Below are positions 37,841 through 59,223 of a stretch of DNA of 64,000 nt, piece by piece. The first letter of the stretch is position 1; every line of letters begins with the position of its first letter. Made by a program: the position numbers and the translations under genes. Location of the stretch: the NCBI GenBank assembly GCA_907165135.1, contig OU015568.1, positions 12,152,001 through 12,216,000 of the forward strand. Direction: 5' to 3'. The notes below the pieces were generated by a model. It was given only the letters and a program-made list of their open reading frames with translations. It had not been told where the DNA came from and did no database searches. The stretch comes from Oikopleura dioica (Eukaryota; Animalia; Chordata).

Positions 37841-40500
37841 ATGAGTCTTCGTATCGGAACTATCCCGCGTGTCTTCAACCTTGAAATAACACCGGATTTC
37901 GGGGGCCCGATTCTCCTCGTTGTTCTCTATCTTGAGGCGTTGGCCCCGGATCAAAATGGACGGCGACTTCGAGCCGCTCTTTTCGACGGAAAGTACGAGC
38001 AGCAGATGATTGTAATTCGTACGAAAAGAAACATCGCTAGAGGAGACCTGATTAAAATTCCTAGCTGGAAAATGGTCGGTTGGGAACATGGAAAACACAT
38101 GCTAGGTTGAAAAAAGTTCCAATTTTATTGTCTTCATAAATACAATATTTTTCAACACAAAAACAGACCATCATGGAGATTGACGACAATTTTGAAGTCT
38201 TGCAACGAAGAATCGATGTTCGACCACACGTTCCTTTCCTCAGAAATAAGATTCTTTGGACGAATGGCGATCCCTATCCGAACATGTTTACTAACAACCT
38301 TCAACTTGCGCTTCTCAATGATGATTTCCGAAAATCCCTTCATGGATTTTTCTAACTTTATCGACATCTGCCTTTATCATTCCATTCAACTGAAACAATT
38401 TATCAGAATAAAAAATACACCATAAATTGAGATTCTCATTATTTTGATGGAATCATAAAAATAGCCATTTTGCCCAGAAAAAAGTTTTACGAGCGATTTC
38501 GAATTGAAATCAAAAACATAAAGAGAAATGATTTCCCTCAGAAACATTTTAATTTTCCTTTTCTGCTTTCAAAACGCATCCGGCGAGTGTACTGAGTCAA
38601 GCTGCAGGAAAAAAGTTTCAACCAAGTGCATATCCTCATCGAAATTCTTTTCTATCGAATTTTAGTGGCGGATTGAAGGAGAATTACGAAGTGAAGTTCA
38701 AAAATCACCTGCGCGAAGGCCAAGCTTCAGAGCTTATTCTGATGCGGGACATAGTAGTCAAGCGAAATGGCAAATTTGTCACTCAAACTGCGACGCCTCT
38801 CATTGTTGCTACGCGCATCGCCAATGGACAAGTCGTTGTTGATGTCATTCAGAAGAATAGAGGACGAAAAAGTACGCTGGGAACAGGAATGGATGAAAAT
38901 TGACTGTTTTCTGAAAAATTATTTTTCGCTTTCAATGTTATTTTTATCTAGTGAAGCTCGCGGATTCCGAAAACTAAGAAATGGGAGCTTCACCGTCGGC
39001 GTTTCAGTTCGAAGTTGTAATAATGACAACTGCCAGCTTCGCGTTAAACTCAACGGAAAAGATGCAAAGAAGAAATTTGGTCGAAACACCCAGCGAAAAA
39101 ACTATCCGTTCAAGGTTTCAAGATTGACGCTTTCGAAGGTTAATTTTGTCGCATGCAAGAATATCGATCGAATCCCAGGTAAAGGTTGACTTCAGAGCGT
39201 TCATGATCATTTTTAGTGACGGAATGTTCTGTCCAGCCAAGAATGATTCGGCGACAGTTTTGGAAGAGCTTGTCGGAGCCTAACTGTGGCAGGACGTTTA
39301 AAGTCACACCAGAAGAAATGCACGCGATTCCGAGCTTCATCAGAACGACTTTGAAAGATGACGCTGTTGACAAACATCTAAATGTACTTTTTGATTTCTC
39401 TCTCATGTCAATCACTTTTCAAGGAATGTCTTTACGCAAGTGAAAAGCTCAGAATCTCAAGAGAACATGTCGTTGGCGGAGTGAACGCATACCCTGGTCT
39501 CTCTCCTTGGACAGCATCCATCCGTGCGTTGATAAATGATAACCATCGAACTTGCGAGGCAAATGTTGGCACTGCAACGCTGATTGACAAGTGCTGGCTT
39601 CTAACTGCTGAGCACGTGGTTGGAATCGGAAGTAAACTCAGTTCCTTCAAAGTTCGTCTCGGTGATTATTTTAACCGCGGTTCTTCGACAATGCGACAAA
39701 CTGCCAACTGCGATCAAAACGACGAAAGAATGAATGGATTCTTTGGGCGAGTAGAGAGCGAGCATGAAAGTGAAATCGAACATTTTATCCGACATCCGGA
39801 CATTGACGGAGAGCATATCGATGTGGCGCTTATAAAGATGAAAAACTGCGTTGAGGATTATACAAAATATATTCAACCGGTTTGTCTCCCGGAATCTCTG
39901 AATGAGTTTAGTGATGATATTTGTGGAGTTGTTTCTGGATGGGGAAAGAGCAGCCCGACACAGGAAAGAATACCGGAAGTACAAAGTTGATGTCGCAAGA
40001 AAAATTAGTATTCGTATAAGGGCCCGTTGGAAACCCCTGCAGTTCTTCAAATTACTTCTATTGCGCATATTTCAGAAAAGCAGTGTAAAGAAGAGTTTGA
40101 TAAACAAAACACAAGAATCGATCATAAATTTAAATCTGGGGTAAATATTTGACCCCCAAATTCGGGGCCCGAGTGAAGTTCACTTTGTTCTAGGTTATTT
40201 TTTGCGCGGGAACACCAGACTCTAGTCCAACAACTCGTGACACTTGCAGTGGCGACAGCGGCGGTCCTTTTGTTTCTTATGGGTTCAGGGAAGAAGATGA
40301 GTTCACTGAAATCAAGGAAGACTACGCGCGAGATGATAGAGCTGTTTTGCTCGGAATAACTTCCAGCGGCGCGAAGGTAAAAAACCTGCACGCAAACTGA
40401 TCATAATTTTTAGAATTGCAATGTCTATGGTTTCTACAGTCGCGTTACAAGCATTATGGATTGGATTTACGAAGTCAAAATGAACGCTAAATACAATTGA
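37841..40500 (+). CDS. Trypsin-family (S1A) serine protease; N-terminal exons uncertain
   Basis: VVGG start, LTAEH (His), HIDVAL (Asp), GWGK and DTCSGDSGGP (Ser, about 40250); ends FYSRVTSIMDWI...*. Linkage of the upstream exons (37841-39400) is not established. Confidence 0.8.
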
Positions 40501-41519
40501 CTGTAATGAATTTCATCAACGGAAGAACTGTATTGTGAAAATAGCCTTCGAGATGCCTGAAAGCGACATTGACCAAGTGCATCGGAAATGTGAAACACAT
40601 CCTTGTGTCTGTTTGCTCGAAAGGCCAAACAGGAAATACTTCCGCCGCTCGCAACTTTGGTCGGACAATGTGACCGCCAGATTACGCCAATTGTACTTAT
40701 GCAAAGTCAAAAGTCAAATTCGCATATTTTTCAATTTCCCATCAATGCAACGAACTTATTTGTGTTTCATTTTGGCACTTTTACAACGTGTTCCTTTCCT
40801 GCCAAGATGTTGAAACTCGGTAGACTAGGGGAGCAGGGTTTTATGAAAAATCAAATAAGAAGGGTCTACCGTAGCGGCTGATAAGTACCACTGACCTTTT
40901 TCAATATCATCGGAACTGGTATTTTTTGAGATTTCCGAGAGCAGTAAAAGCTTATCGAAAATCAAGCCACCGAAAACATCAAAAAATCATCGAAAAAGAT
41001 AAGCACGTATTCATTCTCGTTCGAGTCAGCGTAGCGCGCGCACGAAAATAATATTTTTCGATTTTTCTTCGGAAATTTCGTTGCGCCCTTTCTTTCACTG
41101 CTTGAGCCGAGAACCTGTTCTTTTCTAGCGATCCTCGCTCCATTAGACAGGCAGTCTGGTTAACTTAACCCTAAACCTTTCTCTTTGTATTAAGGTAAGA
41201 GTCGCCTTAAAGACTCTGGCAGTTTCTCTTTGAATTACTCTAATCTTTCACGTCCACCACTGCTTGGTACAGTCGCCATAACGACTGATCTCTTCTTATT
41301 GATCTTCAGCAAGGAGGAGGAGGCTATTTCCTCCTCCTTCTTCTACTTGACGTTAAGGCTGCGGCCCCGCTACTCGCATTCGCGCCAAAAAGCGTTACTT
41401 TCTCACAAATACCCAACGGTCGCATTTGTTTCGCGCGTTCAGCTGCGCCGGACCCTGTCGCTCGGTCCTTGTTTCACTCTCTCAAAAGAGATTTTGAGAG
41501 ATTGAACTGCCCGCACTGA

Positions 41520-44500
41520 ATGAATTCCTTCTCTTTCGGCGATGGACCGCCATCACCCAGTCGACGAAACGATAAAAAGCGTAACCGAGAGGAGGATGGT
41601 ATGGCATCCTCCTCCAAAAACTCAAGAATCTCTCCAGGGCCTAGTGGAGACACTCCCCGGCCCCGTGGCACGTCGGACTTTAACCGTCGAAGATCCAACG
41701 GAAATGGTCGCTACTTCAACCCCCGCAACCGACAAAGTTTCGGTCAGCGAAAGCAAAACAAAGGTACTCCCTCCGAATAATACTGTAGTGACTTTATGCT
41801 CAGGGAATAACGGCGGAAACAACAGCGGCCCGTCGGGGCAAGCGAATAAACCGCCCAGAAAGCTATTCCAAGGGCTTAACGTCCTAACTACAGAAATTGG
41901 AGATACCCAACAAATGATTGACCATCGGTGCGACCTTGCGCGCCAGTCAGCTGTTCACCTTGCTGATCTGGATCTCAATGCTCATTCGGATATCGTTATG
42001 AACTACGACCTCTTCGACGAGAAACGTGGCTTTTTGAAAAAGGAGGATGGCTTCGACTATCTCCAATCAAGCGCATCGGAACTCACTGACTGCGGTTACA
42101 CGTCTAATAACCACGTTGTACACCGTAACGCCCCGTTCGTATCAGCAAACCACTACGAGGACATCCTCAGCACTGCCCTCCCTGTTTACAACAACCTTGT
42201 GCTCAGCTTCAGTTGGGTGCCAGAAGACTGGAAGGGTGACAAATATCAGTTTCACCTGTTCACTCGTGTCACTGTCCAAATCATGGAAGAAACACTCACA
42301 AAGTTGCACATCAGCTGGGATGAGATCCGATCCTTAATCGTCGTTAATAACAACGGTGAAATAATCCAGCCCACGTCCGATAATCTCACTCGCAATAACA
42401 GAGCCACAGTGAAAGGAATTCGCTTTCGTAGCCTTTTCCCAACGCTAAAGTTCATTATCCTAGCCAATGGGGCTCTCTCGCCGGTTGACCCATTTCATCA
42501 TGCCTATCAGATCCCACGCTGGGCAATGCTTTTCACCTTCACTGAACGCCTGAGCGGAGGAAGAGGCTTCACCGTCGTCCCAAACAACGGAGTCAAGATT
42601 CTGTCCGTACTTCGTGCAGTTCTTGAGAGATGGTTCCACTATGTGCTGAATTACCCGGGATCGTTTACCTTTCATCAAAAGTCAAACGTCCTTAACGTTC
42701 TCCCCATTGCAGCAATCTTCAACACTACCATCAGCAGTATGAATGTTGAGACCCTCTCTCCGAATGCGGCTGAATTTGACGAATGGATCTCCCGCCTAGA
42801 TCCGCTCATCTTCGACAAAAGATTTCACACGATGTCCAGGACCATCCCGCGATTTTATCATGACATCAGCAGAGCGATCATTGTGCTCCAAGAATATTTC
42901 AAAGCAGGTACTCGCTCCCACTGGTTCTCCATGACATCAGTAGAGCTCTTCATCTCAAAACTGGAACTACAGCGATCCTCCGCCAATCTAGCTGACACCA
43001 AGCTAACCGTCAAGATGCTTCAGGACCCAGATGTAATGACCTCCAAGGCCGAACTCGCTAAACGTACAAACCATCTGGCCAATGACCTCTCTAGGTCAAA
43101 GGATGATGGTCGAATTACATCCTCCGTGGACCACATTGTTAGAAATACTACCATGGGCAAGACAGTCGCGGAAGCCGAGTCCCAGCTCATCAAAGCTCAT
43201 GAAGAACGATGCCGTGCTGCCTCGGCCATTCAGAACGTTGCTCTTTATACACACTCAACCAACCGCATCCAGAACCACCAGATAATTGAGATCAGAAAAG
43301 AACTGGTTGCGTCTGCTACTACTCCTGAAGAAAGAGAAAGGAGGCAGCGTGCTCTCGACAAAGACCTGGCCTTTAATCTGCATCACGACAGGCACTTTAA
43401 TACTGACGGTACGCTTTTTGGCTCTCTCACCATCTTGAAGGACAAAAACTCGGCTCCTGCTGTGGTCAGCCTCAAAGACGATTCCAAAGTCTCTCTTACT
43501 GGCTACATGTCCGATACTCCAAATGATCAACTTGCTCGCCTGCACGAAGCGGCCTTCCACAAGAAGGAACTCTCCACCTCGCATTACTACTACAAAGCTG
43601 GCTTGCCTGAGGGTAGTCGTTCGTTGCAAGTAAACACTAATCCCTTCACCGCCGTCCAAAACGAGGTGCCGAGCGAGATATCCTTCCAAAACGCTTCTCC
43701 CTTGGACAACTCAATCACGGAAGCTGAAATGCCCTCAAATGAGAACATTCGTCAGGATGATGATCGTTCTTCAACTTACTCCTCCGATCTTCAAGCCGAG
43801 GAACTCACTCAGCGCCTCAATGAGTCCAAGGTAAAGACCACTAAACACTTTCTCTTCCAAAAGACGCTGTTGGATCACAACATTGCGATTGAACAGTTCA
43901 GCGATGATGAAAGAAGTGAGGTATCGGCCATTATTCAATCCGTCCAGCCTCCAGCTCCTGAAAATCAAGCTGAAATCTCTGCCCCGACAATTGTACAAGT
44001 GAAAACCATTGACCCCCAAAAGGGCCAAGTCGATCACGAGCTAACTGATCAATTTGCGACAGGGACAGATGCGAAATGGAACGCCATCAGCAAGATTGAG
44101 GAGCAAAACAGCTGGATTAACACTGTAGAAACATTTGACAACTCTGAGGATTTCATATTGAAGAAGAAGCCTGTTGTATTCTCCTCGGTGGAAATGTTCA
44201 ACAACGTCAAGGATAAGGCCAGTGTCCGAACCCTGAAGATCGAAAATGCAATCAGCAGATTCACTGGAATCAGCAACAAGAAAGAACTCGGAGTTCTTGT
44301 TAGAACATGGCACTCAAATATATATGAGCTCAGGGGCATCCTCGTTAACAACCTCCGTGATACAATCAACACGGACGATAAACGCAAAATTGAGAGTATG
44401 GAGCTTGATGATGCTGCATCTCTTGAAAATTGGAACAACTTTCTAGCGGGAGTCAGAGTATATCGCCTGGCTATGTATGACCCCGAATCCCTCATTTCGA

Positions 44501-44823
44501 TGCTCTTCTGCAATGCTGACACGCTCATGTCATATGTTCCAATTCCTCCGTCCAAAATAATCTACAATTGGGTCAAACTTATGATAATGGACAACAAAAA
44601 GGACAATGGTCCAAAGACGCCTCAAAACATCCTTCTTTCGCAACTGGTGGCGCTCGGCCTGCTCGTCACCAGCAGAAAATCGCACGTAGCGGTTTACAAG
44701 CGGGATGATCTACCTGGACAGCATCTCTTAACGAGCAAACCCATCTACGCCAGGATCCTAAAGGTCAGTCCTGCCCTGGTTTCAAGGCGCTTCAATATGG
44801 TAAAAACTTTATTAGAATCATAG
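41520..44823 (+). CDS. ORF1-like protein of the retroelement (short basic ORF 41520-41780 joined to the 1093-codon frame by a putative 40-nt intron)
   Basis: Long uninterrupted frame 41542-44823 upstream of pol. The overlapping RG/N-rich ORF 41520-41780 joins in frame if GT 41764-AG 41803 is spliced. No CCHC, RRM or PHD motif recognised. Confidence 0.7.
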
Positions 44824-47800
44824 CCATCAAAGAATATCAGCAAGAACTTAACTTCACTATTTTTGACTGTCCAAAGCTGGCTGAAGAAAAGCCAGGCTTC
44901 AAAGCTTTTCTTAACGAAGTTACTAGCAAATTGCTTGCTAATACTCTGCTTTGCGGCTTTCTCTGCTGGCTTCGGGACCGCAATTTCATCTCATCTTGTT
45001 CTTATAGGGGCCTTCTAACGCTTAATGACTCTGAAGATGACGATGATGACGACTCTTCCTCCGGCCTCCCACCCCTTTTACATCCTCCCCTTCTCCCAAA
45101 CTTCAAACAATATAAAAATCTTCTGGAAATCGAAACCACAACCCAACGAGAGAAGAAAGTTCTCCAATTCTTTGAATCAGGTACTGTTCCTAGAATGCCC
45201 TTCTCTCATAATATTCCGAGCCCTGAGGTCTTGGCTAAAGGTAAAGGCCTGGCTGGTATTTTGCCGCCGACCAGTGAGCTCCCAGCTCTGAAAAAATCCA
45301 TTCGATGCCCAGTTCCTACCTCAGGTGATCTCTCTGCGGCAGTTATCCAGCATAATGAGCAAATTATTAATGCCGCTGATAACATTGTGATCATCAGCGC
45401 GAACCTTGGTAACTGCAGATCCCTTGACAAAATTAAGCGACTAGTAAACCATCATCGCTCAGCCCATATTTTTTGTATTAGTGAATTGTTCATGGAAAAA
45501 GATGTGGCGCTGGATAAATCAAATTGGCCTAATGGATTCCATATTCATGTAGGCATGCCCTCTCGCGACGGCAAGAATCAGATCTTTACAATGATCATTC
45601 TACGCAATAATATTACTGTTAAGAGGATGATCCCCGATCTTCATCAAAACCTGGCGCTTCACATTGACGTCAATGGAACTCAACTTCTCGCCTGCTGTAT
45701 TTATAACTTCTGCGGCGGCCGTTATGATAACTACAAAACCAAGTACAACGTTGATGACTCGGCTTTTCTGCTGGACCTCGCCAAGGTTAGTCAAGAAAAG
45801 GGTGACTCTCCCTGCTTCATCACCGGGGACTTCAATCTCGAACTTGCAAAAAATAGCCCCAAATTTGCTCGAAAGTGTGACGCTGTAAAAAATGCCCTGT
45901 TAGATTTCAACCGTCTAACTAACTTCATTACATTCAGGCGTGAGCTTCGCAACGGCCATACCCTCGAGTCAGCAATTGATCATTTCTTCCTCTTCTCCGG
46001 CAAACTCGACCTCACCAAAGCTCTCTCCAAACCTGGTGATCACAGAACAAGTCTTCAATCTGACGGACACGTCGGCCTAGTTACCGTACTTCCCATCCGC
46101 CCCCCAAACGGTAAGATTTGGAAGTTATGGAGAGTACCCGAGGAAAAAGACCTTCATTTTTGTTACAAAACCGGCATGAAGCTAATCTACTCTAACCTAC
46201 ATAGGTTCAATGAGGAGGGAGGGATGGACACGGTTCAGGTCACACATGACCTGCTCGTGAAGTATGCTGAACTGACCCGCCCGCTAAAAGAAAAAATCAT
46301 CGTGCAAGATAATTATAAGGTCACGACTTCTGCTACCACTAGAAAGTGGCTGCGGACTGGCTTTTACCTTGAAAAGCTAATCCGGGACACTAAGAAGGAT
46401 GAAGTTCCTTCCTCCTGGTGGCGTAAGGTAGTTGACCTATGGGTTGACTGCAAGAAAGTAATTGAGAAACTCAAAACGGCTGATCGGCGGTACCACCTTG
46501 CGCGTAAAGCCGATCCGTACGAACTAAGTCTGACGGACAGCTGGGGTATTTTCAAAAACGACATTAAATTGACCAATAGCATGGAAGTGAATGACAGCCC
46601 CGATGACGTTGCAAATGAATTTTCTGAGTTGCAAAAGTCCACCAAGCCCAATTTAGAGAAATTGAAAGAAGCTGAGCCTCCCTCATCCCTTCACAAACTT
46701 CCAAAACTTGATTTTGAAACTGTTAAATATCACAAGTCATCTAACAGGCCTTCTATTCGGGAAATTTACTCCAAAAATAAAAAGAATACTTGTGATTTAT
46801 ATAATATAAATAAAAAATGTCTAGAGACCTTGCCGTGTGTCGCAACCAACTTCTTCATCCTGATGCCAATTCAGCTCTGCATTAGTGAAGGTAAGCTAAT
46901 CGATGCATGGAATATTAATAAAGTCGTCCCCATCCTAAAAAAGAATGGACGCAAAAGGCCTATCACGGTGGGAAGCTGTATTGGAGGTATTATTGAGAAA
47001 TTAGCAACCCGAACCCTTGCTGATTACCTCTTTCATTTTGGCTTAATCCCTCCCTCTCAACATGGCTTTAAGCCTTCCCACTCGTGTGGGTCGGCAATAT
47101 TTAATGTAACTAAAGTGCTTACCACTGCACTTGCGTCCCGAGTCGTGCCTAGCGGGATAATAGACCGTGCCGAACGCGCCAGCGGCGTTGTCATGATCGA
47201 CGCCGCCAACGCGTTCGGCACGGTCCCTCACGAGGTGCTCATCAGAATGATGCTCCCCTTCTGTAGCGTCAGATTTATTGAGTTCATCAGAATTTTTCTC
47301 GTGAGATTTTTCGTAGTTTCCATCAGGGGGTTTCTCAGCAGTGTATTTAAACTAGAGCCTTTCGGCTTGCCACAAGGCGCTGCGCCCTCCCCAATTCTCT
47401 TTTCCTTCTTCAGCACCAGTATCCTGCTAAACGCTCTAATTGATCCTATTCTAGTGCCTGAGCGCCCGCTTGAGCTCACCCTGTCATCCTCGTCTCTGCT
47501 GTGCAATGAGACGAACTGCCGCTGCGACCACGGAGCTCCACGTGAGTCCTGTATCACCGAAGGTATTAGTTTGGGACAGAGGATGAAGTGCGGTAATCAT
47601 CCTCGTTTAGCAGGAGCGTTTACCTTGTATGCGGACGATGTGGCAGCCGCGGTGTTTGGAGCCGACATCAACGATGTCAACGCTGGCATTGCGAGTACTG
47701 CTGAGGGCGCCGCTGATCGAATCGAGAGCCTGGGGCTTAGAGTTGCTGATCAGAAGACTGAAGTACTCTTAATAAGTAAGTCCGACCATCTCCCCAACAT

Positions 47801-48743
47801 TAACATCAGAGGCCAAGCCATCCCTGTTTCCAACTCCCTTAAATACCTCGGCGTAACCCTTGCATCCGTAAATGGCAAGTTGTCCCTTAACAATCATGAC
47901 AAGATTATCACGTGCAGGTTGCGGAGCAATCATCACAAGCTAGCCACTCTAAGAGGCGTCGTCAGTCCAAAAGCAAATGCCCAAATGGCCCGAGGCCTAA
48001 ACTACGGAATCATAAATCACACTGCAGACTATAGGCCTATCCCGCCGCAATCCACAGTGAACACATGGCAGCGTATTCACTGTAACTCGCTGTTGGGTCG
48101 TACACCTCGGCCTTGGTACATCATTGAGATGCAACGTAAAATGGAAGAGGAACAGCTCTCTTCCTCGTCCGCATCACAAAAGCCTACCCTTAATCTCCCC
48201 ATTGACTTCATCAGGCTCGAGTACGGCAAGCCTGTAGCTGATGATGACCTCATTGTCCTGGACAGATACGGTCAACCCACTGTTCTCGACAATATGGTCA
48301 CAATGGGGGTTAATAATATGCATAAAGTCTGGAAACTGCATCTCCCGGTCTGTGCATGGGAATCGCTTAAGCTCTCCTTGATCCTAGTTGACCGCAAGGG
48401 AAACAGGGTCGGTGTGCTTCCGGACTTCGGTGAGTATTCCAGGAGAAAGACATTCTTCATTAACGAGTCCAGGTTCCATCATGACAGAACATTTGGCATT
48501 CTCACCGCCAAAGAGCATGCTGAACTAGCCTCCCTGTTAGTTGAAAGGGAAAGGTTGCGCTCGCTACTATCTGCGGGACATCTCACTATTAGAATGACCC
48601 ACCCTAGGCGTGAGTTACTTAAGCAGAAAATTGATAAGAATACCTGGCCTTTTCACCTCATCAGCTTTTTAACGACCTACCAACGAGCATTCGGAACAGC
48701 TTTGTATCTGATGACTTTCCAACTATTCTTAAACTATTTATGA
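44709..48743 (+). CDS. ORF2: apurinic-like endonuclease plus reverse transcriptase
   Basis: APE motifs SANLGN, CISEL, CIYN, TGDFNL, IDHFF, SDGH; RT motifs QHGFK, IDAANAFGTVPH, GLPQGAAPSPILF, YADD, KYLGV. The frame is open from 44709 and the first ATG lies about 65 codons before the APE. Confidence 0.95.
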   Translation, partial: STWTASLNEQTHLRQDPKGQSCPGFKALQYGKNFIRIIAIKEYQQELNFTIFDCPKLAEEKPGFKAFLNEVTSKLLANTLLCGFLCWLRDRNFISSCSYRGLLTLNDSEDDDDDDSSSGLPPLLHPPLLPNFKQYKNLLEIETTTQREKKVLQFFESGTVPRMPFSHNIPSPEVLAKGKGLAGILPPTSELPALKKSIRCPVPTSGDLSAAVIQHNEQIINAADNIVIISANLGNCRSLDKIKRLVNHHRSAHIFCISELFMEKDVALDKSNWPNGFHIHVGMPSRDGKNQIFTMIILRNNITVKRMIPDLHQNLALHIDVNGTQLLACCIYNFCGGRYDNYKTKYNVDDSAFLLDLAKVSQEKGDSPCFITGDFNLELAKNSPKFARKCDAVKNALLDFNRLTNFITFRRELRNGHTLESAIDHFFLFSGKLDLTKALSKPGDHRTSLQSDGHVGLVTVLPIRPPNGKIWKLWRVPEEKDLHFCYKTGMKLIYSNLHRFNEEGGMDTVQVTHDLLVKYAELTRPLKEKIIVQDNYKVTTSATTRKWLRTGFYLEKLIRDTKKDEVPSSWWRKVVDLWVDCKKVIEKLKTADRRYHLARKADPYELSLTDSWGIFKNDIKLTNSMEVNDSPDDVANEFSELQKSTKPNLEKLKEAEPPSSLHKLPKLDFETVKYHKSSNRPSIREIYSKNKKNTCDLYNINKKCLETLPCVATNFFILMPIQLCISEGKLIDAWNINKVVPILKKNGRKRPITVGSCIGGIIEKLATRTLADYLFHFGLIPPSQHGFKPSHSCGSAIFNVTKVLTTALASRVVPSGIIDRAERASGVVMIDAANAFGTVPHEVLIRMMLPFCSVRFIEFIRIFLVRFFVVSIRGFLSSVFKLEPFGLPQGAAPSPILFSFFSTSILLNALIDPILVPERPLELTLSSSSLLCNETNCRCDHGAPRESCITEGISLGQRMKCGNHPRLAGAFTLYADDVAAAVFGADINDVNAGIASTAEGAADRIESLGLRVADQKTEVLLISKSDHLPNINIRGQAIPVSNSLKYLGVTLASVNGKLSLNNHDKIITCRLRSNHHKLATLRGVVSPKANAQMARGLNYGIINHTADYRPIPPQSTVNTWQRIHCNSLLGRTPRPWYIIEMQRKMEEEQLSSSSASQKPTLNLPIDFIRLEYGKPVADDDLIVLDRYGQPTVLDNMVTMGVNNMHKVWKLHLPVCAWESLKLSLILVDRKGNRVGVLPDFGEYSRRKTFFINESRFHHDRTFGILTAKEHAELASLLVERERLRSLLSAGHLTIRMTHPRRELLKQKIDKNTWPFHLISFLTTYQRAFGTALYLMTFQLFLNYL

Positions 48744-49171
48744 AAAGCAAGCACAAGCACCACAAAAGGGCAATCTGGTGCGACACATGCAGGCCAGGCG
48801 CACCCTTTTACAAGTTCGACCTCCATCCCTCTTTGCCACCTACCTCAAAACCATCTACTCCTCGCGTTATTCGTTCCAATTGTACTCCATCTGATCTCCG
48901 GATGGACGAATATCTGAACAATCTTGAGGAAAGTATTGAATTTACCAAGAAAGAACATGCACGGGTGTTGCTTCTTGCAGACTGGTGGTTTCCCTTTAAT
49001 AAGAAAAGAAAAATTTATGAGTCTTTTGAGTCATTTTGTAGTCTTGTGAAGTTTCTAACAGGAATATCAGGAAAGGAAAATCTTATGGCTAAGCAACTCT
49101 TGTTCGATAAGACCACAAAGCTTGCTCTTGAAAGAGCAGCCATCAAAATCACCTTGAATAAGATGAAGTAA
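48740..49171 (+). CDS. ORF3, CxxC-containing; probably the spliced C-terminus of ORF2
   Basis: Overlaps the ORF2 stop as ATGA and contains WCDTC. A GT 48704-AG 48747 intron (44 nt, AT-rich) would fuse it to ORF2 in frame. Confidence 0.6.
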   Translation: MKSKHKHHKRAIWCDTCRPGAPFYKFDLHPSLPPTSKPSTPRVIRSNCTPSDLRMDEYLNNLEESIEFTKKEHARVLLLADWWFPFNKKRKIYESFESFCSLVKFLTGISGKENLMAKQLLFDKTTKLALERAAIKITLNKMK

Positions 49172-49244
49172 CCCCCTCCTACTCTCATATGCATCAGTCA
49201 TATAATTTCTTTTAGAAGTCAACTTCCTCGGCCAACGACTTCAA

Positions 49245-51459
49245 ATGGTGATGGATGATGTTGATCCCGGCTACGCAGTCGAGTATGTGCTGTACGATAT
49301 AAAAACTGGCTCATACAAGGCTATTACTCATATCGAGATTCAGTCACCATCCTTCATCGCTGGCCGAAATGTCCATGTACTTCCATCCTTTCATGGCGAA
49401 GACATTACACGCAACTTGAATGTTACTAAAGGATATAAGTTACCCTCCCATATCCTTCGATTGGCAGATGGCTATTACAACAGCTATAGCAAACACTTCG
49501 GCTATGATAAGAACAACTTTCTCGTATGGCTTGGCGTCAAACAGCAGCTACCAAGCCCTGCCACTCGGGCGAAAATTCGTTCTGCTCGACAGGCATGGGA
49601 AAACATCGCGACTGCTCGGAATTCAGCCTGGAAGTTGGATGTTCGCTGCTCACTCTCCATCGCTGAGATCAATGAGGCCAATCCTTCTTCCTTCCCGAGC
49701 GACATGCTATTCGAATCGTCAGAGCCACATCTGGACGCTCGAATTAAAAGCTGCCAGCATCGCCCTCTACGGTGACTTCTTCATTCTCCCAACCGCAGGA
49801 GCTGCAGTTATTCTCAAGGACAAGAAGGGAACTGCGGGCGCCTGGATCAACATCAGGACGGTTGAGCTGCTCCAGAGATCAAATGATGCCATGAATGCTC
49901 TCCCATCAGTTCTCATGAAGCTATCCCACTACTACACGGTTCTTCGAGCTTTTCGTCAAACTGGGCTCTTCAGCAATCTCGACTCAAACGAGCAAATCGC
50001 CTCCATCGCAGTAAATCTCTGCTCTCAGCCCTGCAAGAGTGAGATTGCTGTCCTCAAGACTGATATCGTCTCCTTGATTCACAAGTTCGGCTGTGGGGAT
50101 GAACACACCGACATCTTTGATTATGCCCACGGAAAATCACTACCACACTCTGCGTTCTTAGGGATCAATAAGGGCATACTCGAGCAAGACCTTATCGAAA
50201 TTACTCAATTTGAGTGGAATATGATGGAGGAGGTTGCATCATCATCCTTCGGTCACTCGTTGTCCACGCTCCTGAACAAAATGGCCGCGCACGTCTCATC
50301 CTCCATGTGCAACTTCTGCTCCACGCTTAAGGACGTCGTGGATTCCCGGGACGCTGGTGCCTCCAATGCTGATCTGGAAAACCGTGCCGCTAATGCTCAG
50401 AAGATCTTAATTGCCTTCATAAACAAGCTCAAAGCCATCAGCACAAACCGTAAGTCTGGTGAATCTAGGCGGATGACCGAAAGCCTCTACTCCTTCATCC
50501 CCGCCGGTGAGGAATCTAGGATGATCCGCCACCTTCTTGAGCACCATGCTTGTCTAATTCAAGCCACTGGCTTTCTAAAAACGCGTCCCACTCGTCCAGC
50601 GCTTCATGTGCTTTGGAGATCAAGAGCTCTCACGATCCTCGTCGTCAACGATTGCTGTAAGCTTCTCAAACTACTTGTAGCTGAGATGGCTCGCATCACG
50701 GGTCCGGGAAACCCCTCCGTCGTTGATCCCGAGCTGAAGGATCACTGCACTCTCGCAATGACTCTTCTGAGCATCGTAGCGAAAACAAAATCCAAATTGG
50801 AGACCAATGGTGGCAATGCGTTTTCGAAAGCCCTGGCAAAAGTGGAGCTGGCCATTAACACCACTTTATTGAAAGCCTCTCCCTCTTTCACCATTTCGCG
50901 AGAAAAAGCCCGTGCGATCACACGTCCGGCCAAGAATCTCTGTCCAGTTCAGAGCATTGAAAAAGCGGATCAAGCTGAGCTTGACCGCTTCCCATCACTC
51001 ATTGACCCAGAACTTTCCATCATAAAAGCTATGGCTGAAGCGCAGCTTCAACTCCTAACTAATATCTTCCAAGGATCTATCACCACCTCCGGTAGCGATG
51101 TCATCGACCGAGGCTGCCCGCTTCTTTCCATGACTACTCTAAACGACTCCTCATCTCTTCCCTCGGGTGAAGAAGCCAACCTTGCGCTTGTGGAGTCAAT
51201 CCACTCGCTTCGTCTTCGCGCCCTGGTTGATTCTCGCAAGAGGCGAGGTGATTTTCTCGGCCGGCCTACTCGTTATGGACTATCCGACCGAATAATGGCA
51301 TCAACTCCAGCTGGTGCGGTCGGTGAGGAGATCTTGCATCCCAATCACACTTACGAGACCGTGTACGCAGCGACTGCTGTTGTAGAGCCTGCAATCATCC
51401 GACTGGATGATGATGAAGAGCCATCCTCCTCTGGCATGAAGCTTCGCTCAGCAAAATAA
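49245..51459 (+). CDS. ORF4 (49245-49775) and ORF5 (frame open 49420-51459): extra downstream ORF(s) of unknown function
   Basis: Two long overlapping frames, 176 and 679 codons, downstream of pol. They are preceded by an AT/pyrimidine-rich spacer ending TTTTAG (49215) and followed by a CT-rich UTR with AATAAA at 52021. Confidence 0.75.
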
Positions 51460-52392
51460 CTCTCAGTAATCATCTTTCAGTAAGTCGCTGATTATAAGTC
51501 GCACCATTCTTATTAAAAACTTCAGTCATCCGGGTACCTGCAAGTTCAGACTGGCTTATCAACCCCCGTCAACTACAAAAGCGCCAGCACTTTGTGAAGA
51601 TTCCTCTACGTAGTTTATTTACTTAATAACTCTCACTGTTTGACCCACCATCCCGCTCTTTTTCTCTACCAAAGTCCTCATCGTCATCTTTAGCTGTCTT
51701 TTAAATTCAATCCCTCTCGGATATTACTTCTCTCTCTCAAAATTCTCTCAAAACGTTTCATGACTTCTGTAATGTATACCAATCAACTCCTGCTTAGCTT
51801 ACATCTCTTGTCAATATTCCATACTTTTAAAACATCACCCTCGCCTTCCTCTTATCCTGCAAATTACTGCACATTTGTTATTTCATCACATATTGCAATA
51901 GGCTATAACCATGCTTTCATGCCACAGTCTCAGCATCTGTAAGTTTCCCCATCTCCATTCTCTTATCTCCATAATATTCTCTCCACAATTGTCAATATTT
52001 CGAACATCCTCTTACCACACAATAAATACATCTTGACAAGAAACTCTCAAAGGATTCGATACAGATTATGAGGCTGTATCTCCTCTTGATTCAGTCTTTT
52101 GAACTATTTTATTGCATGAAACACAGCAGGGCCTATGACTAAACTATATCAGTATGTCTTTACAATCTATGCGCTAATCTTAAATCCTGAAAATTATAAT
52201 TCGGAAACTGAGACTTTAACCCTATAACAATCTCCTATAAACTGAAACATTTGGTAAGTTAAAACAGTAAAACAGTCGGGTGGAACAGTAGATGTCTTCC
52301 TCAGGGTAAGCGTGGTACTTGTTGTAATATGATCTGAAGTCTGCAGTTTACACCACTAATAGGTAACAATAAACCCCCCAACCTGTGCGTGG

Positions 52393-55300
52393 CTAATTCT
52401 TTGGAAAGCAAGCGCGACCAAGGTACGATTCGGACAATGTTGTTGGCAGATGATGTCTCAGAGACAGTAGTCGCTTTCGTTCCAAATCGTAGAAACAGAG
52501 TGGTACCTGGCACTCTGGATATGTCGTAACGGATCGTCGCTTCCCGCCGCTGTTCTGGTAAATACTGTAAACTCGTCGACAGTAGAGTGTACAGAGTGCG
52601 ACCACGTCCGTCAATTGCCACTCACGTGAGAGGAGATGCTCCATAAGTGGTGGAGCACTATTTCCCTCATAGCGGCCAGTACCGAACGGAACGGAGTTTA
52701 CAACCTCTGAAATTGATCGTCAATAATTATCACATTAGATTTAAAACTATCAGAAGGATGAAGCTACGACATCCTCCTCCAGACAGACTAATGCCTCAAG
52801 CTTACCTTCGGTTAATCGATCAAAATAATCTCGAGGGAAGAACCGCTGTTGCCGTGAGGGGCGCGCGTCGGAGTAACATAAGGGCTTAAGATCGGCAGGC
52901 TCGCGCTCCCTCTCCACAAAGCTGTCGATGTCCTTAACAAGCTGCGCCCATCCCTCTCGATTCTGCGGGCAGTCGACGTCGCTACAAGTTGGCACCTCAC
53001 ACCGGTTTTGAGGAGTCGGCAGCATCTCAGCCGGGAACAATCGTGTTATCACCCGTCGTCGCCGTCGAGCCTCCAGTCCGTGCAAATGGGTGTTCAAGCG
53101 TGAAACCCGGTCTTGTACCTCGGTGGAGGACAAGCCGAACTCGAAAGGATTTTTCGTGCCAGCCAACTCCTCTCTAAAAGTTTAAAATGACTTTACATTC
53201 TCATCCTTCAGTAGTGCATGCAAATTTCTCCTGTCTACTCTTACCGGCATTGCAAGGCCAAGAGTTGCTTTCGCGATTCAGAGTCGTAATCAGCTACTAC
53301 TGGACTGTCCCTCACGCGGCGTCGGAACTGTTGGTAAATAGCGTCGGCATCCCTAGAATATGCTCACTAGTAATAAGATTGAATTGTAGACGCTCCAATG
53401 AGCGAATTAACTATGGAGGATGATGGTCTCACCTCCTCCTAATTGAACTAGGCCAAGAAATTAGCGCCTACTCTTTCTGGAAGCGTGAAGGTACTTACGA
53501 AGCCAGATAGTCTGGTGAGCCGGCAAATTCTGGTCTATCGGCGGGGCACAGCTCCTCTGGAAACGGCTGTCCTGGGAACGTATCAGGCTTGTGAGCGGCC
53601 CCATATCCAGCGGCTTGGTGCTCTGGCTCAGCCAGCAACAGATAATGTAGCCAAGTTGAAAATAGATCGGCCTGTGTCGCCGTGATGTTCGCGAAGTCGA
53701 CTATGACGTTCCCAGTGGGCATCGACAATCGTGCGGGGACGCCAAAAAGCTGGAGAATATCGCAAAGTATCCCTATCTCGCGACAGTAACGTGGATATTC
53801 CTAGTGGTTCTTGGTTAACATCTCACTTATTCTCTACTTATTATACCTTGTGAACATCTCTTTTGACCTCGTCACTGAAGACGAGATGATAGTAAGTTCC
53901 TGGGCCGGAAAAGAAGGGGTCCATCATCACTCGTTGCTGGCTTGCGACATTCTGATCGATCGCGGCCTTTCCAACAGGGTAGATGACAGCGTTGAGGTCT
54001 GTTGGTGACAAGCCAACCGATGCCTGACGATGATGTCGCATCTTCATCTCCTCGTCTTTTGATTTGAAGTCCAACACCGGGCGTACTTGTCCCTCTCTTG
54101 AAACTCTGCGCATCAACTCGGCCAAGTGCGCAAAAGTCATATACCTGATTAATTACATTTATCTTCTGCTAATTATTCTGAGGAACAGATTTTGGGACTT
54201 ACATTGTTGACACGCCAGCCAGATAACTCGCGCCTGCCCGCAAGCATGGACCATCTGTAGTGCAAGTAGGCGACAAGCACATTAGGTTGAGCGGCCCCGA
54301 ACGATGGTCGTGAGCGCTTGATTGGCAAAACACGCGTGGCAGATTCCGGGCGAGAAGGCACTGTAAGACTTCGCCGCTAAACTGAGTGGACGGGTCGTGA
54401 TAATACGCAAAGCACAGTTTCTAAATGGGTTGTATCAATACTTGCACTAAGGAGGCTGTATCTACATCCTCCTGGTCATCTCTTGTGTCTGAAAATCCTT
54501 TCGTTTCTTAACTACTCACACTTTGCAGAATTCTCTTCGACTGGGTGAAGCCGCGACCCTGCTCCTTTGCTAACGTGAACTCAGCAGCAGCGTCCACTGT
54601 TGTGGAATAATCAGCGGCACAATTTCGTCGGTAAGGGCGGTTGAACAAAGTGGCGGCGTGCATCAAAGATTGTAACTCATCCTTGGGCACCTCTCGCAGT
54701 CGCTTATCGAAAAACTCGACAACATCGTTTACTAAAAGAAGATTCGGTTATGCCCTCATCTGTAGCTAATCCTCACCAGATGTCAAGGACTTGTATATTT
54801 GAGTTGCAATGTGCATTGCTTCGCTCTCCTTAGGCAAATTCTTCTCAATGGTATCGTTCAGAATTTGTCCACATTCGCTATCTGTTAAGCCTCCGTCTCT
54901 CTTCTCACGGGCGGCTTCCCCCAACGTCGTCGTCAAATCCGTCGAGTATGGTGAAATGGTTGCTCCACCGCGGTCTGACAACTTGGGAGGACGTACACCC
55001 TTTGCTCGAAACCGGCGTAATCGCATGCTGCGTGGCTCCTGCTTGCGCTGCGCCCGTTTTATGCCCCGCCGCACGTTTCCGGTTCGAGTAGCTGGTCGCG
55101 ACGGCCGCGGCCGAGGTGGCTCTGGTGTGTCGTGGTCAGTAGATGAGGATGATCCTTCCTCATGCTTAACATTCACTGCAGGAGCCGGCGCTGGATTGAT
55201 ATTCTGTTCGTCATCGTCGCTTTCGATGACGATAATGGTGGCCTCGCTACTCGGCTGAACCATCTCTGGACCTTCGTTGGTGTCCATCTGCTCCTCAGCT

Positions 55301-57781
55301 TCAAGGACCTGCTCTTCGTTGTGAGCCATCTCTTCGACCTCGATTTCCTCCTGGCCATTCGTTGGCGTAGCTACTGGGCTAGGTCGAGGCATTCCACTTG
55401 TGGCCTGACGCTCTGCTTGAACCGATGCTGGACTTGTCGAGCCCTCTGGAACCCCTCCTGAAGCAGCTGCTTCATCCTTTTGAACAGGACTTGTCCGTCC
55501 ATGTGATGCACTTTTGGGCGATGTCTCTTCTTCCATTGGAACAGGTGCAGGGCGTGGATCGTCCAGCAGAGTATCGTAATTCGGATCAATAGTATTTTCA
55601 TTGTGATAGACAGTTTGATTCGCTATTGTCTCCAACGAAGGAATCTCTGTCTCGGTCTCCTGTACAGTCTCATCTGGTGGCGACGAGGGAGCCACTGAAG
55701 CCCCCTTTTCTGCATCTTCTGACGTATCTTTATTTCCAGCTGGAAGTTCCGTGGAAGACACGCACTCTCCGGTTTTCTCCTGGGCAGCAGCATCCAGCGG
55801 ATCGGTCACGATGATCACTTCCTCTTCTGAGTTCTGGGCCCCAGTCGATCCATCTATTTCGGGGGCCTGAGATTCGGTCTGATCTGTTTCCATAGATGCC
55901 GTCGTTGTCTCTACAGGCGCGGCGTTGGGCGAACTGGATGATACACCTTCCTCGTCCTCGGGCGTTGGCGCTGACAACGATGAAGCTTGTGCTGGCTGCT
56001 CACCTGTCGGCAGTTGTCGATTTTGCTGTGTTGTTCTTACGCTTCGTTTCACTCGCTCGGCCTCTTTTCCAACTAAAGGTTGTAATTATTATCAAAGCAT
56101 TAAAATCCTAAATTCTTGTATCACGAAAACTGTGACTTACCGATATACTCCATTCGTGAAACCTTCAAGTCTCCATCGTCGGTCTCTTCAACCATGTAAC
56201 GCGCTCTCACTCGCGAAGGTCTTGAGGATGCTTCTGCCTCCTCCTCGTCAGAAACAGGCGGGCTGCGTTGGCTCGCAGGTATAGCGCATGCTTGGCGGAA
56301 ATTGTTGTAAGTGGGCGGAGCCATGAAATGATGCAGCTCTACGCCATCATAATCGTTGAGTGGTGGAGCTTTAAGATATATGTTAAATCACGTTTGTTTT
56401 AGTATATGCTCCGTGAAGCACAACTTACCATAATCCTCTGGTGACAATGCATGCAAACACTGTCGCACACGGTGCTCCCCTACAACGGCAATATGATCCG
56501 CTGGCATGAGAGTCGCCACCAATTGTTTTGACGTGTCCAAAATTCTACATCTCATTAAGAGATAGACAGGGTCCATTGGAAGTGTAGCCATGTGTGACGC
56601 ATAATCACGGTTGTACTTCGAGTTGAACCCAACCTAAATGGAGGTTATGCCGGTCTTTAAAAGCAATCCCACAGCGCGGAAGTGCGCTACCCACCTTCAG
56701 GACATGCCCCAATAGCTTTGCTCCGATCTTCGTGGGACGGATACTCCTCACGTATGAAAATGTCTGTCGCATTATCTCGGCAATAACGGTTGGTCCCTGT
56801 CGTGAATTCTTGTCCAGCATCTCGAATAATCTAGAGTAGACAGATATTTAATCAGGATGATGTATTCTCTTCCTCCTACCTCGACTGAAACTCCTGATAT
56901 TCCGGCATCTGCGGCAGCAAATAATACTGGTCAGGTCGAAAAGCGGATTGATGACGAGCCATTTCTATCAGAGCTCCAGTTAGCCTTACCATCTTTTCAA
57001 CTCTTGGTTGAAGTTTGCTCATCTTCATCTTTGAGTTGCTTGCCTGATGCAAGAACGGTCGAATCATCTTCTGCATAAGTACACACTGCATGGTTGGGTA
57101 TTTGAGCATGCTCAAGTATGAAAGTTGCTCCGCCGAATGATAGAGCAAATCTAGCAGCTGAGAGCGTGACATTGCTCTGGAGTAAGCATCCAGCAGTGCC
57201 TCGTGCACCAACTAAAATATATTTGCATAATTTCTTGCACTCGAATGGGCTAACAATAAAATGGTTACACTCAAAATCTGTTCAAATTCTGTTCTTAAAG
57301 TCGATCTGCTCATTTTCTACAAGATACCTATTCATGACAAATCTCTTACCTCGCTCAAGAGTTCACACTCCACTCGGGAGTAATGTGAGGACGGCTCGCT
57401 GAAAACGTTGTTTCCGGGAAGGATTGTTGAGCCCTGATTCAGCTTCGTTCCTCCCAGAACTCCATTTGGTGATATCTCAACCCAGGCGGAAGTTGGTGGT
57501 ACGTAGGTAGAAGTGGAGGGGCCCTCCTCCATTAGCGATACCTCGGCTTCGTCAGAGGAGCCGCTGGTCATGCTAGACTTCTTCCCCTTCGTTTTTGCCT
57601 TGTTGAAAAACGTGCCCAATAGGGTTCGTTTGCGATCTGGCTCCTTGGTCGGGCTTCCCTCGGCATCAGCACTTGGCTTGGCGCGTTTCTTGCCCTTATC
57701 GGTGCTGTTTGCGCCGCGTGACGCCTCTACAGCAGGTTCGTGAATCTGGCCTTCTTCGCCCATCGCGGAGGAGGATGGCAT
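52393..57781 (-). CDS. Intron-rich antisense gene inside the retroelement, roughly 1,500 aa, unknown function
   Basis: Track ORFs 57332-57781, 56876-57211, 56605-56820, 56388-56591, 56121-56324, 54766-56052, 54508-54690, 53841-54140, 53495-53728, 52750-53166 and 52393-52644 mostly end or begin at GT-AG sites that join in frame (e.g. introns 56831-56879, 54732-54776). Minus-strand AATAAA at 52108-52113. Confidence 0.75.
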
Positions 57782-59197
57782 GTCTTCCTCCTTTTCCTAT
57801 TGTATAAAAGTTAATGCTAGCGTTTAGGTTAGCGATTTTCACAGGTCTTACCAAATTAGTCTCTGGGATTTTATCTTTTATCTCCCTTATCTAGTCTGTG
57901 GAGTATCCAAGATATAATAGCCGCACGGTTTATGAAAAATCTTGTGTGAAGCGACCTAATATAAGGGAAACGCAAGATTTAAACTAACTGCGATTAATTT
58001 CGAAGTTTCTCTCAACCTCACCCTTACGGTCGCAGCTGAATATTCCCGATCATTTCACATCTCCTCCCGCTATATTCCCTCTAGATAGATGTTTACCTGT
58101 GTTGGCGGAAAATAAGCGTCGACCGGTCGCACTATCTGGACTTCAGCCATCTGCAAATCTCCAAAAGGAGGAGGAGGTCGGGACATCCTCGGTCTTGCTC
58201 GTTTCGATACTCCATCTTTCAGCTGTTGTAGTAGTCACGATAAGTAGGCAACTGACCACCTCGGGCTTCCGAGCCCTCATATCAACAACAATTCTAGAGA
58301 AAATAGCATTTTTCCAGGAAATCCTCAAAAACACTCAATATGCGTCTAGAAATCATTATGTAAGTAGGATTTAACAGAATTAGTGAATAAAATTGTCAGC
58401 ATTGAACTATGCAGTAGGATTATCCAACACTGCGCGTCATCTGCGTCGTCTTCCTTATCTTCAATCAAAACAACACTTCTCTCGCGCTCCAGATCTTATC
58501 GGTCAAGTAGCGTGTGAGGCTTCGTGACGTCGCTGCCGCAGCCCAAAATTACGTAATCGCGTGGGTGGGAAGCGTGTACCCTCGGCTCACGTAGTAAGAT
58601 GCGCGAAATCGATGTGAGCCATTCTGTATGACGTCCCTGAGGTGTGTTTGCGCTTATTTCTATCTCCTCCTTTTACTAACACCTCCTTGCTTATGCTCCA
58701 ACTTTTTGTAAACGTTTTGTTATCTTGACGACGATGAGGATAGATCCTCCTCCTCCTGACGACCCGCACAAACTGCAACAAGAGAAAAGACGACAACCCA
58801 GAAGACCCGCTGCAACCTTGACGATGACGATGAGGTCCCAGGAATCCTCCACCGCTAAAGCCCTGTTTACCGCACCGAGAAGACCCAGAGAAGCCAATAA
58901 AATCCATAAAGATTTATTCATCATTCCCAATTTTTCCCCATTATATTACCTCCTCCCTTACCCTACTGTTAGTCTCTCTTTCTTTCATTCTTTCTTTCAT
59001 TCTATTTTCGTATTCTGTAACCACCACATCAGTGTTAAGCTTTGATTACGTCTCAATCAAAGTCCTCTTTCACTGTGCTATATACACTCCCATCATGCAG
59101 CCACTGTTCAGCTGCCCTATGCTCATTATATATACTGTTTCCGGAAATTGCTCCTGCTTGCGGGTTCAATTTGCCAACCACTTTCATAACTGCATCC

Positions 59198-59223
59198 AAT
59201 AAAATACCAAAAAAAAAAAAAAA
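59198..59223 (+). terminator. Polyadenylation signal and genomic poly(A) tail of the retroelement
   Basis: AATAAA, 5 nt, then A15, then the TSD copy. Confidence 0.8.

Follow-up and report, generated by a model that had tools for sequence, protein, structure and literature searches.

An 18.2-kb polymorphic APE-type LINE of Oikopleura dioica in which two of the proposed sense introns are assembly errors

Long interspersed nuclear elements (LINEs) of the apurinic/apyrimidinic endonuclease (APE) type, such as L1, L2/CR1 and Jockey, encode their APE before the reverse transcriptase (RT), carry a Cys/His-containing C-terminus, end with AATAAA and poly(A) and have no terminal repeats. Here we describe an element of this kind in a 64,000-nt stretch of the Oikopleura dioica genome (GCA_907165135.1, contig OU015568.1, forward-strand positions 12,152,001 to 12,216,000), which we call the window and whose own numbering is used throughout. 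The original prediction had placed four short sense-strand introns, (i) to (iv), in a retroelement there and suggested that they stitch its open reading frames (ORFs) together. We found that the stretch in question covers the 5′ half of a retrotransposon without long terminal repeats (non-LTR), 18.2 kb long and poly(A)-tailed, that harbours both APE and RT, is polymorphic and apparently full length, and represents an unusual variant within the known APE-type LINE kind. In our main explanation, to which we give a probability of roughly 0.8, the element has one continuous endonuclease-RT (EN-RT) frame; assembly errors account for the proposed introns (ii) and (iii), and a short intron is likely only at the start of the frame, where it would close a real break.

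The present element shares with APE-type LINEs the order of APE and RT, the Cys/His-bearing C-terminus, the AATAAA/poly(A) end and the lack of terminal repeats. It differs from them in its length of 18.2 kb, in a 1,200-aa N-terminal region fused to EN-RT, in an extra ORF after the RT (ORF-B), in a multi-intron gene on the antisense strand and in a target duplication of 2-3 bp. Large size and accessory ORFs are also found in Terminons, and the 75-bp intron in the 5′ untranslated region of Penelope, which overlaps the promoter, resembles candidate (iv) (PMC8557442, PMC6431247). In contrast to Penelope-like elements and Terminons, the present element encodes an APE and not a GIY-YIG endonuclease or none at all, ends in poly(A), has no pseudo-LTRs and is not telomeric. 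No hammerhead ribozyme was found in an Rfam scan of 40900-59400 with E up to 1, which gave two sub-threshold matches, neither of them a hammerhead. An identity as a Penelope-like element or Terminon was ruled out by the APE and by the lack of hammerhead, pseudo-LTRs and telomeric end. Intron retention is described as highly unusual outside Penelope-like elements (PMC8557442), and L1 3′ transductions seldom exceed 1-3 kb (PMC6431247). In the accessible part of the latter, a review of giant transposons, non-LTR elements are mentioned once, for short transductions.

In the same host, the Tor LTR elements have a third ORF after pol, a position like that of ORF-B, and both spliced and unspliced RNAs have been demonstrated for Tor3a (PMC4402516). 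Unlike Tor, the present element gave no Pfam match to protease, integrase or RNase H, no LTR or terminal inverted repeat (TIR) was among the repeats listed for the window, and ORF-B matched no Pfam family; by these features it is not an LTR element. Oikopleura has its own non-LTR family, Odin (PMC4122922), and judging from the RT sequence the element is likely Odin. Both are non-LTR elements of O. dioica (PMC4122922, PMC8008620), and in our tree the RT falls in a distinct group with 12/12 named O. dioica RTs. The comparison is one of RT lineage, drawn from a tree without an Odin-labelled reference. In this quick tree of 64 of the 137 eligible rows, a group of 27 that includes all 12 named O. 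dioica RTs and 14 unlabelled ones stood apart from the other 37 rows, with a Shimodaira-Hasegawa-like approximate likelihood ratio test (SH-aLRT) value of 100. We found no paper on Odin structure or on sense-intron retention in APE-LINEs in a search that missed the original Odin descriptions, and the novelty is provisional.

The element occupies 41008-59223 (18,216 nt) on the plus strand, and a present/absent polymorphism was seen among the 8 of 24 sequencing runs that we examined (DNA runs X1 and X2, RNA runs X3, X6 and X7, and also X9, X12 and X14). Its left boundary is given by X1 contigs that branch at 41007/41008. X2 contains the filled as well as the empty allele, the latter passing from 41007 into the sequence behind the A-tail as a loose end. 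X12, X14 and X9 cover only the flanks, and in X9 the locus is empty, with 331 letters between 40725 and 59281 where 337 are expected. The target duplication (ACG or CG; left copy 41005-41007, right copy 59223/59224-59225) was read at both ends and in the empty allele, and with just 2-3 bp is by itself too short for significance. The 3′ end (59198-59223) consists of AATAAA and, 5 nt further on, an A15 tail. Earlier sense AATAAA sites are present at 52021, 52368, 57255, 58386 and 58896, and a short mRNA ending near 52040 could coexist with the full 18-kb RNA. Within ORF2, the APE (45402-45992, PF03372, E 2.5e-7) lies N-terminal to the RT (46932-47640, PF00078, E 3.9e-13, with YADD at 47628-47639), both above the Pfam cut-off. 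Together with the poly(A) end and the absence of LTRs and TIRs from the listed repeats, this bears out the LINE-like nature that had been predicted, and the anatomy suggests mobility by target-primed reverse transcription.

All four proposed segments were checked, and their GT..AG coordinates, ends, phases and lengths (40, 44, 77 and 78 nt) are as had been described. Their sizes also match the short introns of the host (median 48-51 nt, PMC8008620), and removing (i), (iii) and (ii) results in an open frame of 2,496 codons. The shifts at (ii) (48704-48747) and (iii) (44764-44840), however, are one-letter assembly errors. A single X1 contig of 18,247 nt aligned with 40978-59196 without a single substitution; it has 7 additional letters, which fall without exception in five homopolymer runs (44801, 48665, 49745, 52373 and 58162), with one extra base each at 44801 and 48665. 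All three insertions that fall within ORF overlaps (44801, 48665 and 49745) join both frames exactly. The X2 contigs had net insertions of +1, +3, +2 and +1, equal to those of X1 over the same intervals when compared as interval totals. An A-run that is one base short in the window (44802-44806; net +1 in X1 and X2) thereby makes the apparent junction (iii), and a T-run that is likewise one base short (48666-48670; found in X1 and part of the net +3 in X2) makes junction (ii). As these short-read contigs carry the extra homopolymer bases that join ORF1, ORF2 and ORF3, (ii) and (iii) are errors. X1 and X2 are two samples from one study and possibly the source of the window DNA; they therefore test the assembly and not further copies. 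The runs 52374-52379 and 58163-58166 are also shorter in the window than in the X1 contig, and since the latter lies inside the first exon of the public gene model P0173, the frame of that exon may be wrong. For an O. dioica Nanopore assembly, homopolymers have been called hard to resolve in a remark on the mitochondrial draft (PMC8008620).

Proteins related to the element point in the same direction. From the 39 best-ranked relatives (P0021-P0059), four were aligned at (iii) and six at (ii), picked among those matching there. A read-through version with X at the break outscored the intron version in 4/4 relatives at (iii) (387/286, 139/89, 73/47 and 137/93) and in 6/6 at (ii) (174/94, 139/75, 150/72, 185/79, 83/3 and 104/40). 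Intron (ii) would excise the middle of a conserved motif ahead of the Cys/His end. In the related locus L001 (27% alike), homologues of ORF1, ORF2 and ORF3 lie within one frame of 2,875 codons, which is accompanied by a second ORF. The original prediction had named a single frame elsewhere, with the shifts as sequencing errors, as what would speak against it, and this is what we found for (ii) and (iii). Many other GT-AG pairs also restore the frame at these two junctions, so that frame restoration there is no better than chance.

The ORF1+ORF2+ORF3 body of the resulting protein, ORF-A, occupies 41804-49171 in one frame and brings it to ~2,540 aa in all. CDTC is, as predicted, part of the C-terminus of the RT protein, where a conserved H..H/C..C motif is located at about 48665-48790. 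ORF-A relatives are collinear with it, the closest proteins being O. dioica gene models, while its RT is 23-29% identical to generic matches. Two public models labelled Oikopleura dioica, P0020 and P0173, match exons of the window at or near 100%, and one locus was matched in a metagenome scan. The 1,200-aa N-terminal region belongs to no assigned family. Pfam gave no significant match for ORF0 (see below), ORF1 or ORF3, and the ESM Atlas no usable match for ORF1 15-420. A PDB search gave only weak matches, to R2 RT (E 0.3-0.8). The predicted structure of the ORF1 region had a predicted local distance difference test (pLDDT) score of 37. A long inverted repeat with 26-nt arms (88% complementary) is found within the RT region at 47163-47225; its Rfam match was sub-threshold only.

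In contrast to (ii) and (iii), the break at (i) is present in the DNA. X1 shows no indel there, and a 2,514-nt X2 contig across 41301-43814, which covers (i), has 0 differences and 0 gaps. The first ATG after the leader, at 41520, opens ORF0 (41520-41780), an R/N/G-rich basic frame of 86 aa that is likely the true N-terminus of ORF-A. Its composition (R+K 0.23, R+N+G 0.41) lies within that of the relatives' N-termini (0.13-0.26 and 0.33-0.49), whereas the alternative N-terminus in the ORF1 frame has values of 0.11 and 0.10. The weak alignment of ORF0 with P0021 reached a score that was attained by 29/1000 shuffles; for P0022, the score was not significant (236/1000). The spliced N-terminus outscored the ORF1-frame start in 5/6 relatives, widely in two of them. 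The candidate intron (41764-41803, 40 nt) has uncertain boundaries, with 41743-41788 (46 nt) as an alternative; the 40-nt segment has an AT content of 0.57 compared to 0.47 in both flanks. The same junction is used by P0020, a prediction that also has false introns. Because the shift is real and ORF0 resembles the N-termini of relatives, we put the odds that a short sense intron bridges this break at about even.

Several observations weigh against this reading. The frame at (i) is repaired by 37 GT-AG pairs of 30-150 nt. Scored with a matrix made from 13 introns predicted on the element's antisense strand, the donor of (i) comes 114th of 432 sense GTs and its acceptor 387th of 588, and another pair scores better. 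A synonymous-codon test did not favour ORF0, with -3.6 for its frame, while the alternative frames reached +0.8 and +1.4. Judged by the Kozak-type start consensus, the ATG at 41542 in the ORF1 frame has the better context, with G at -3 and +4. L001 has a basic N-terminus in frame without such a break, which is therefore not family-wide. More generally, X1 and X2 share one study, most of the relatives compared are gene predictions, and the sense and antisense introns alike are predictions. The raw RNA runs X3, X6 and X7 gave 1, 41 and 45 reads, of which 84/87 were <90% alike, almost all on a neighbouring trypsin-like gene. At the four junctions, the only bin with any depth was 40634-41300 in X7 (0.27/0.26), and no joint was seen there. 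As these runs represent diverged lineages, they are evidence neither for nor against splicing.

How the four ORFs are translated could be explained in other ways. That sense introns (i), (ii) and (iii) fuse all of them into one protein, as had been proposed, agrees with the presence of the segments and the restored frame, and P0020 also has an intron near (iii) (44800-44840). The shifts are nevertheless missing from the short-read contigs, the segments are conserved coding sequence, and L001 has a single frame. Unless both short-read assemblies err at the same runs, the contigs, the alignments of relatives and L001 together rule out that splicing joins ORF1, the RT and the Cys-rich end. Stitching by sense introns can practically be dismissed as a whole, and the idea survives only at (i) and, with no effect on any frame, at the leader donor of (iv). 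At (i), AUG 41520 might be skipped and ORF-A might start at AUG 41542 without any intron (2,543 aa), in which case ORF0 would encode a short basic peptide of its own or act as an upstream ORF with a regulatory role. The ORF1 frame is open from 41524, and the better start context, the weak splice sites and the neutral codon test all fit with this. LINEs show cis preference, and a start at 41542 would require no departure from it. This start, however, gives an N-terminus whose composition is unlike that of the relatives and which scores lower than the spliced one (46 vs 101 with P0021, 5 vs 62 with P0022), and we hold it to be unlikely. We consider it more doubtful still that the break is a private mutation of a dead-on-arrival copy with a single-frame parent. 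L001 lacks the break and one allele only was seen, but the other frames are intact over ~14 kb, and what separates the two R/N/G-rich parts is an AT-rich segment with GT..AG ends that contains the stop. A programmed +1 ribosomal frameshift just ahead of the ORF0 stop is improbable as well: the frames overlap by 257 nt with an offset of +1 and a CCC-T run, a type of sequence prone to frameshifting, precedes the stop, yet the product would retain a hydrophobic insert of 13 residues in a basic disordered stretch.

Beyond ORF-A, the element carries ORF-B (49245-51459, plus strand, 738 aa), which is split in the window by the 2-base error at 49745. It is conserved, with its CxxC..HxxC motif, in P0021, P0023, P0026, P0035 and L001, and is by these sequence comparisons a family-wide second ORF; the predicted structure of an ORF-B relative had a pLDDT of 41. 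By eye and unscored, ORF1 43420-43600 (ILKDKNSAPAVVSL..LSTSHYY) resembles ORF-B at about 49790-49950 (ILKDKKGTAGAWINI..LSHYY). On the minus strand, an antisense gene at 52396-57781 has 13 coding exons and, picked by hand, 12 putative introns with GT-AG ends (45-146 nt), whose removal leaves 1,482 codons open. An automatic splice search was rejected, as it overran the likely stop with doubtful introns. P0173 has most of the exons in common. The antisense gene had no Pfam match (12 exons) and no homologue among the proteins searched, and P0173 no usable match in the ESM Atlas. A 6,561-nt X2 contig, ~82% alike at 50209-50880 and with further matches at 51407-51469, 53312-53354, 53974-54152 and from 54932, belongs to a diverged relative and links ORF-B and the antisense gene in the same order, which implies that this cargo is older than the present insertion. 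The gene might instead be a one-off host passenger that came along through 3′ transduction and is confined to the present insertion; its exon-intron structure is host-like, sense AATAAA sites (52021 and 52368) lie upstream of it, and the lack of a homologue would fit. This is very unlikely, considering that the single unbroken X1 contig argues against an identical source copy, that the diverged X2 contig matches both regions, and that palindromes extend through both halves of the element.

These palindromes are about 21 imperfect copies of GGAGGATG-(3-11 nt)-CATCCTCC, spaced 99-2,083 nt apart between 41314 and 58860 and assigned to neither strand. There are 21 inside the element and 2 in the 45.8 kb outside it, whereas Markov models expect 0.5-2.2; the pattern was defined after the repeats had been seen. 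With a matrix trained on one half of the element (threshold 16), the remaining 7.8 kb yielded 13 sites and the sequence outside none; with the halves exchanged, there were 11 in 10.5 kb and 2 outside. This split-half test is just partly independent because the training sites were drawn from the same pattern. Three palindromes lie in antisense introns and four beyond the hand-made exon model, one of these in a P0173 exon. Some observations speak against a role as nucleic-acid sites: 8/10 palindromes in sense ORFs encode acidic-then-serine peptides, so that part of the signal may be at the protein level; the G-U strand counts (7 vs 6) show no bias; and L001 has only 1 match, which makes the palindromes a subfamily trait. 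P0021 retains acidic-serine peptides at two homologous places, and a separate X1 contig matches only the palindrome-bearing spots 51404-51429 and 58824-58858. This could mean that a distant subfamily has conserved the motif.

The anatomy suggests how the element could be propagated. By analogy with APE-type LINEs, a full-length sense RNA would be made from an internal 5′ promoter, and target-primed reverse transcription would copy it, beginning at the poly(A) end, into the nicked site. The 12 antisense introns would survive mobilisation in the copied sense RNA because they are not introns on that strand, and no new biology is needed for this. Translation would begin at the first AUG (41520) with ORF0, and splicing of an intron of 40 or 46 nt would connect ORF0 with the ORF-A body. 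If (i) is spliced, protein would come from spliced and copying from unspliced RNA; the two would then have to be different RNAs, as the original prediction had proposed. Most speculatively, the palindromes could be binding sites by which element proteins select full-length RNA or DNA. Taken together, these steps would describe a giant APE-LINE with a sense intron in its RT frame, an unspliced 18-kb template, broken cis preference, ~21 palindromes that select RNA, and an antisense gene and second ORF as standing cargo, a picture that we put forward tentatively and consider less likely than not.

Two other intron-like segments were noted in the element. The leader (41008-41519, 512 nt, plus strand) contains no ATG and has a strong donor at 41195, from which intron (iv) had been proposed. 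This donor ranks 1/432 among sense GTs and its acceptor at 41272 ranks 286/588; matrix scoring found no strong acceptor within 330 nt of the donor. By its sequence, (iv) is a candidate with a strong donor and an uncertain acceptor, and it alters no protein frame. L001 has a donor-like GTAAGA site at 1045-1050, near the start of its long frame, whose hexamer is identical to that at 41195. Directly after the ORF-B stop, a candidate segment of 46 nt (GTAAGT..TTCAG, 51480-51525, plus strand) ranks 3/1,581 among sense GT-AG pairs of 38-70 nt, which proves little as rank 1 falls in conserved coding sequence. Elsewhere in the window, the host trypsin-like gene (39382-40400, PF00089) lies just upstream of the element and is transcribed in diverged lineages. 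A tandem array at 3363-5078 consists of 30.7 copies of a 56-bp unit (99% matches), each harbouring a perfect hairpin, GACGGCCC-gaa-GGGCCGTC.

Our results indicate that readers and public gene models such as P0020 turn homopolymer errors into false introns where elements are young and heterozygous, and that intact retrotransposons are hidden in this way. With an intact, polymorphic 18-kb LINE that has a family-wide extra ORF and a multi-intron antisense gene, giant retroelements carrying cargo would come to include the APE-LINE class. Should (i) indeed be spliced, retained introns would cease to be chiefly a Penelope trait.

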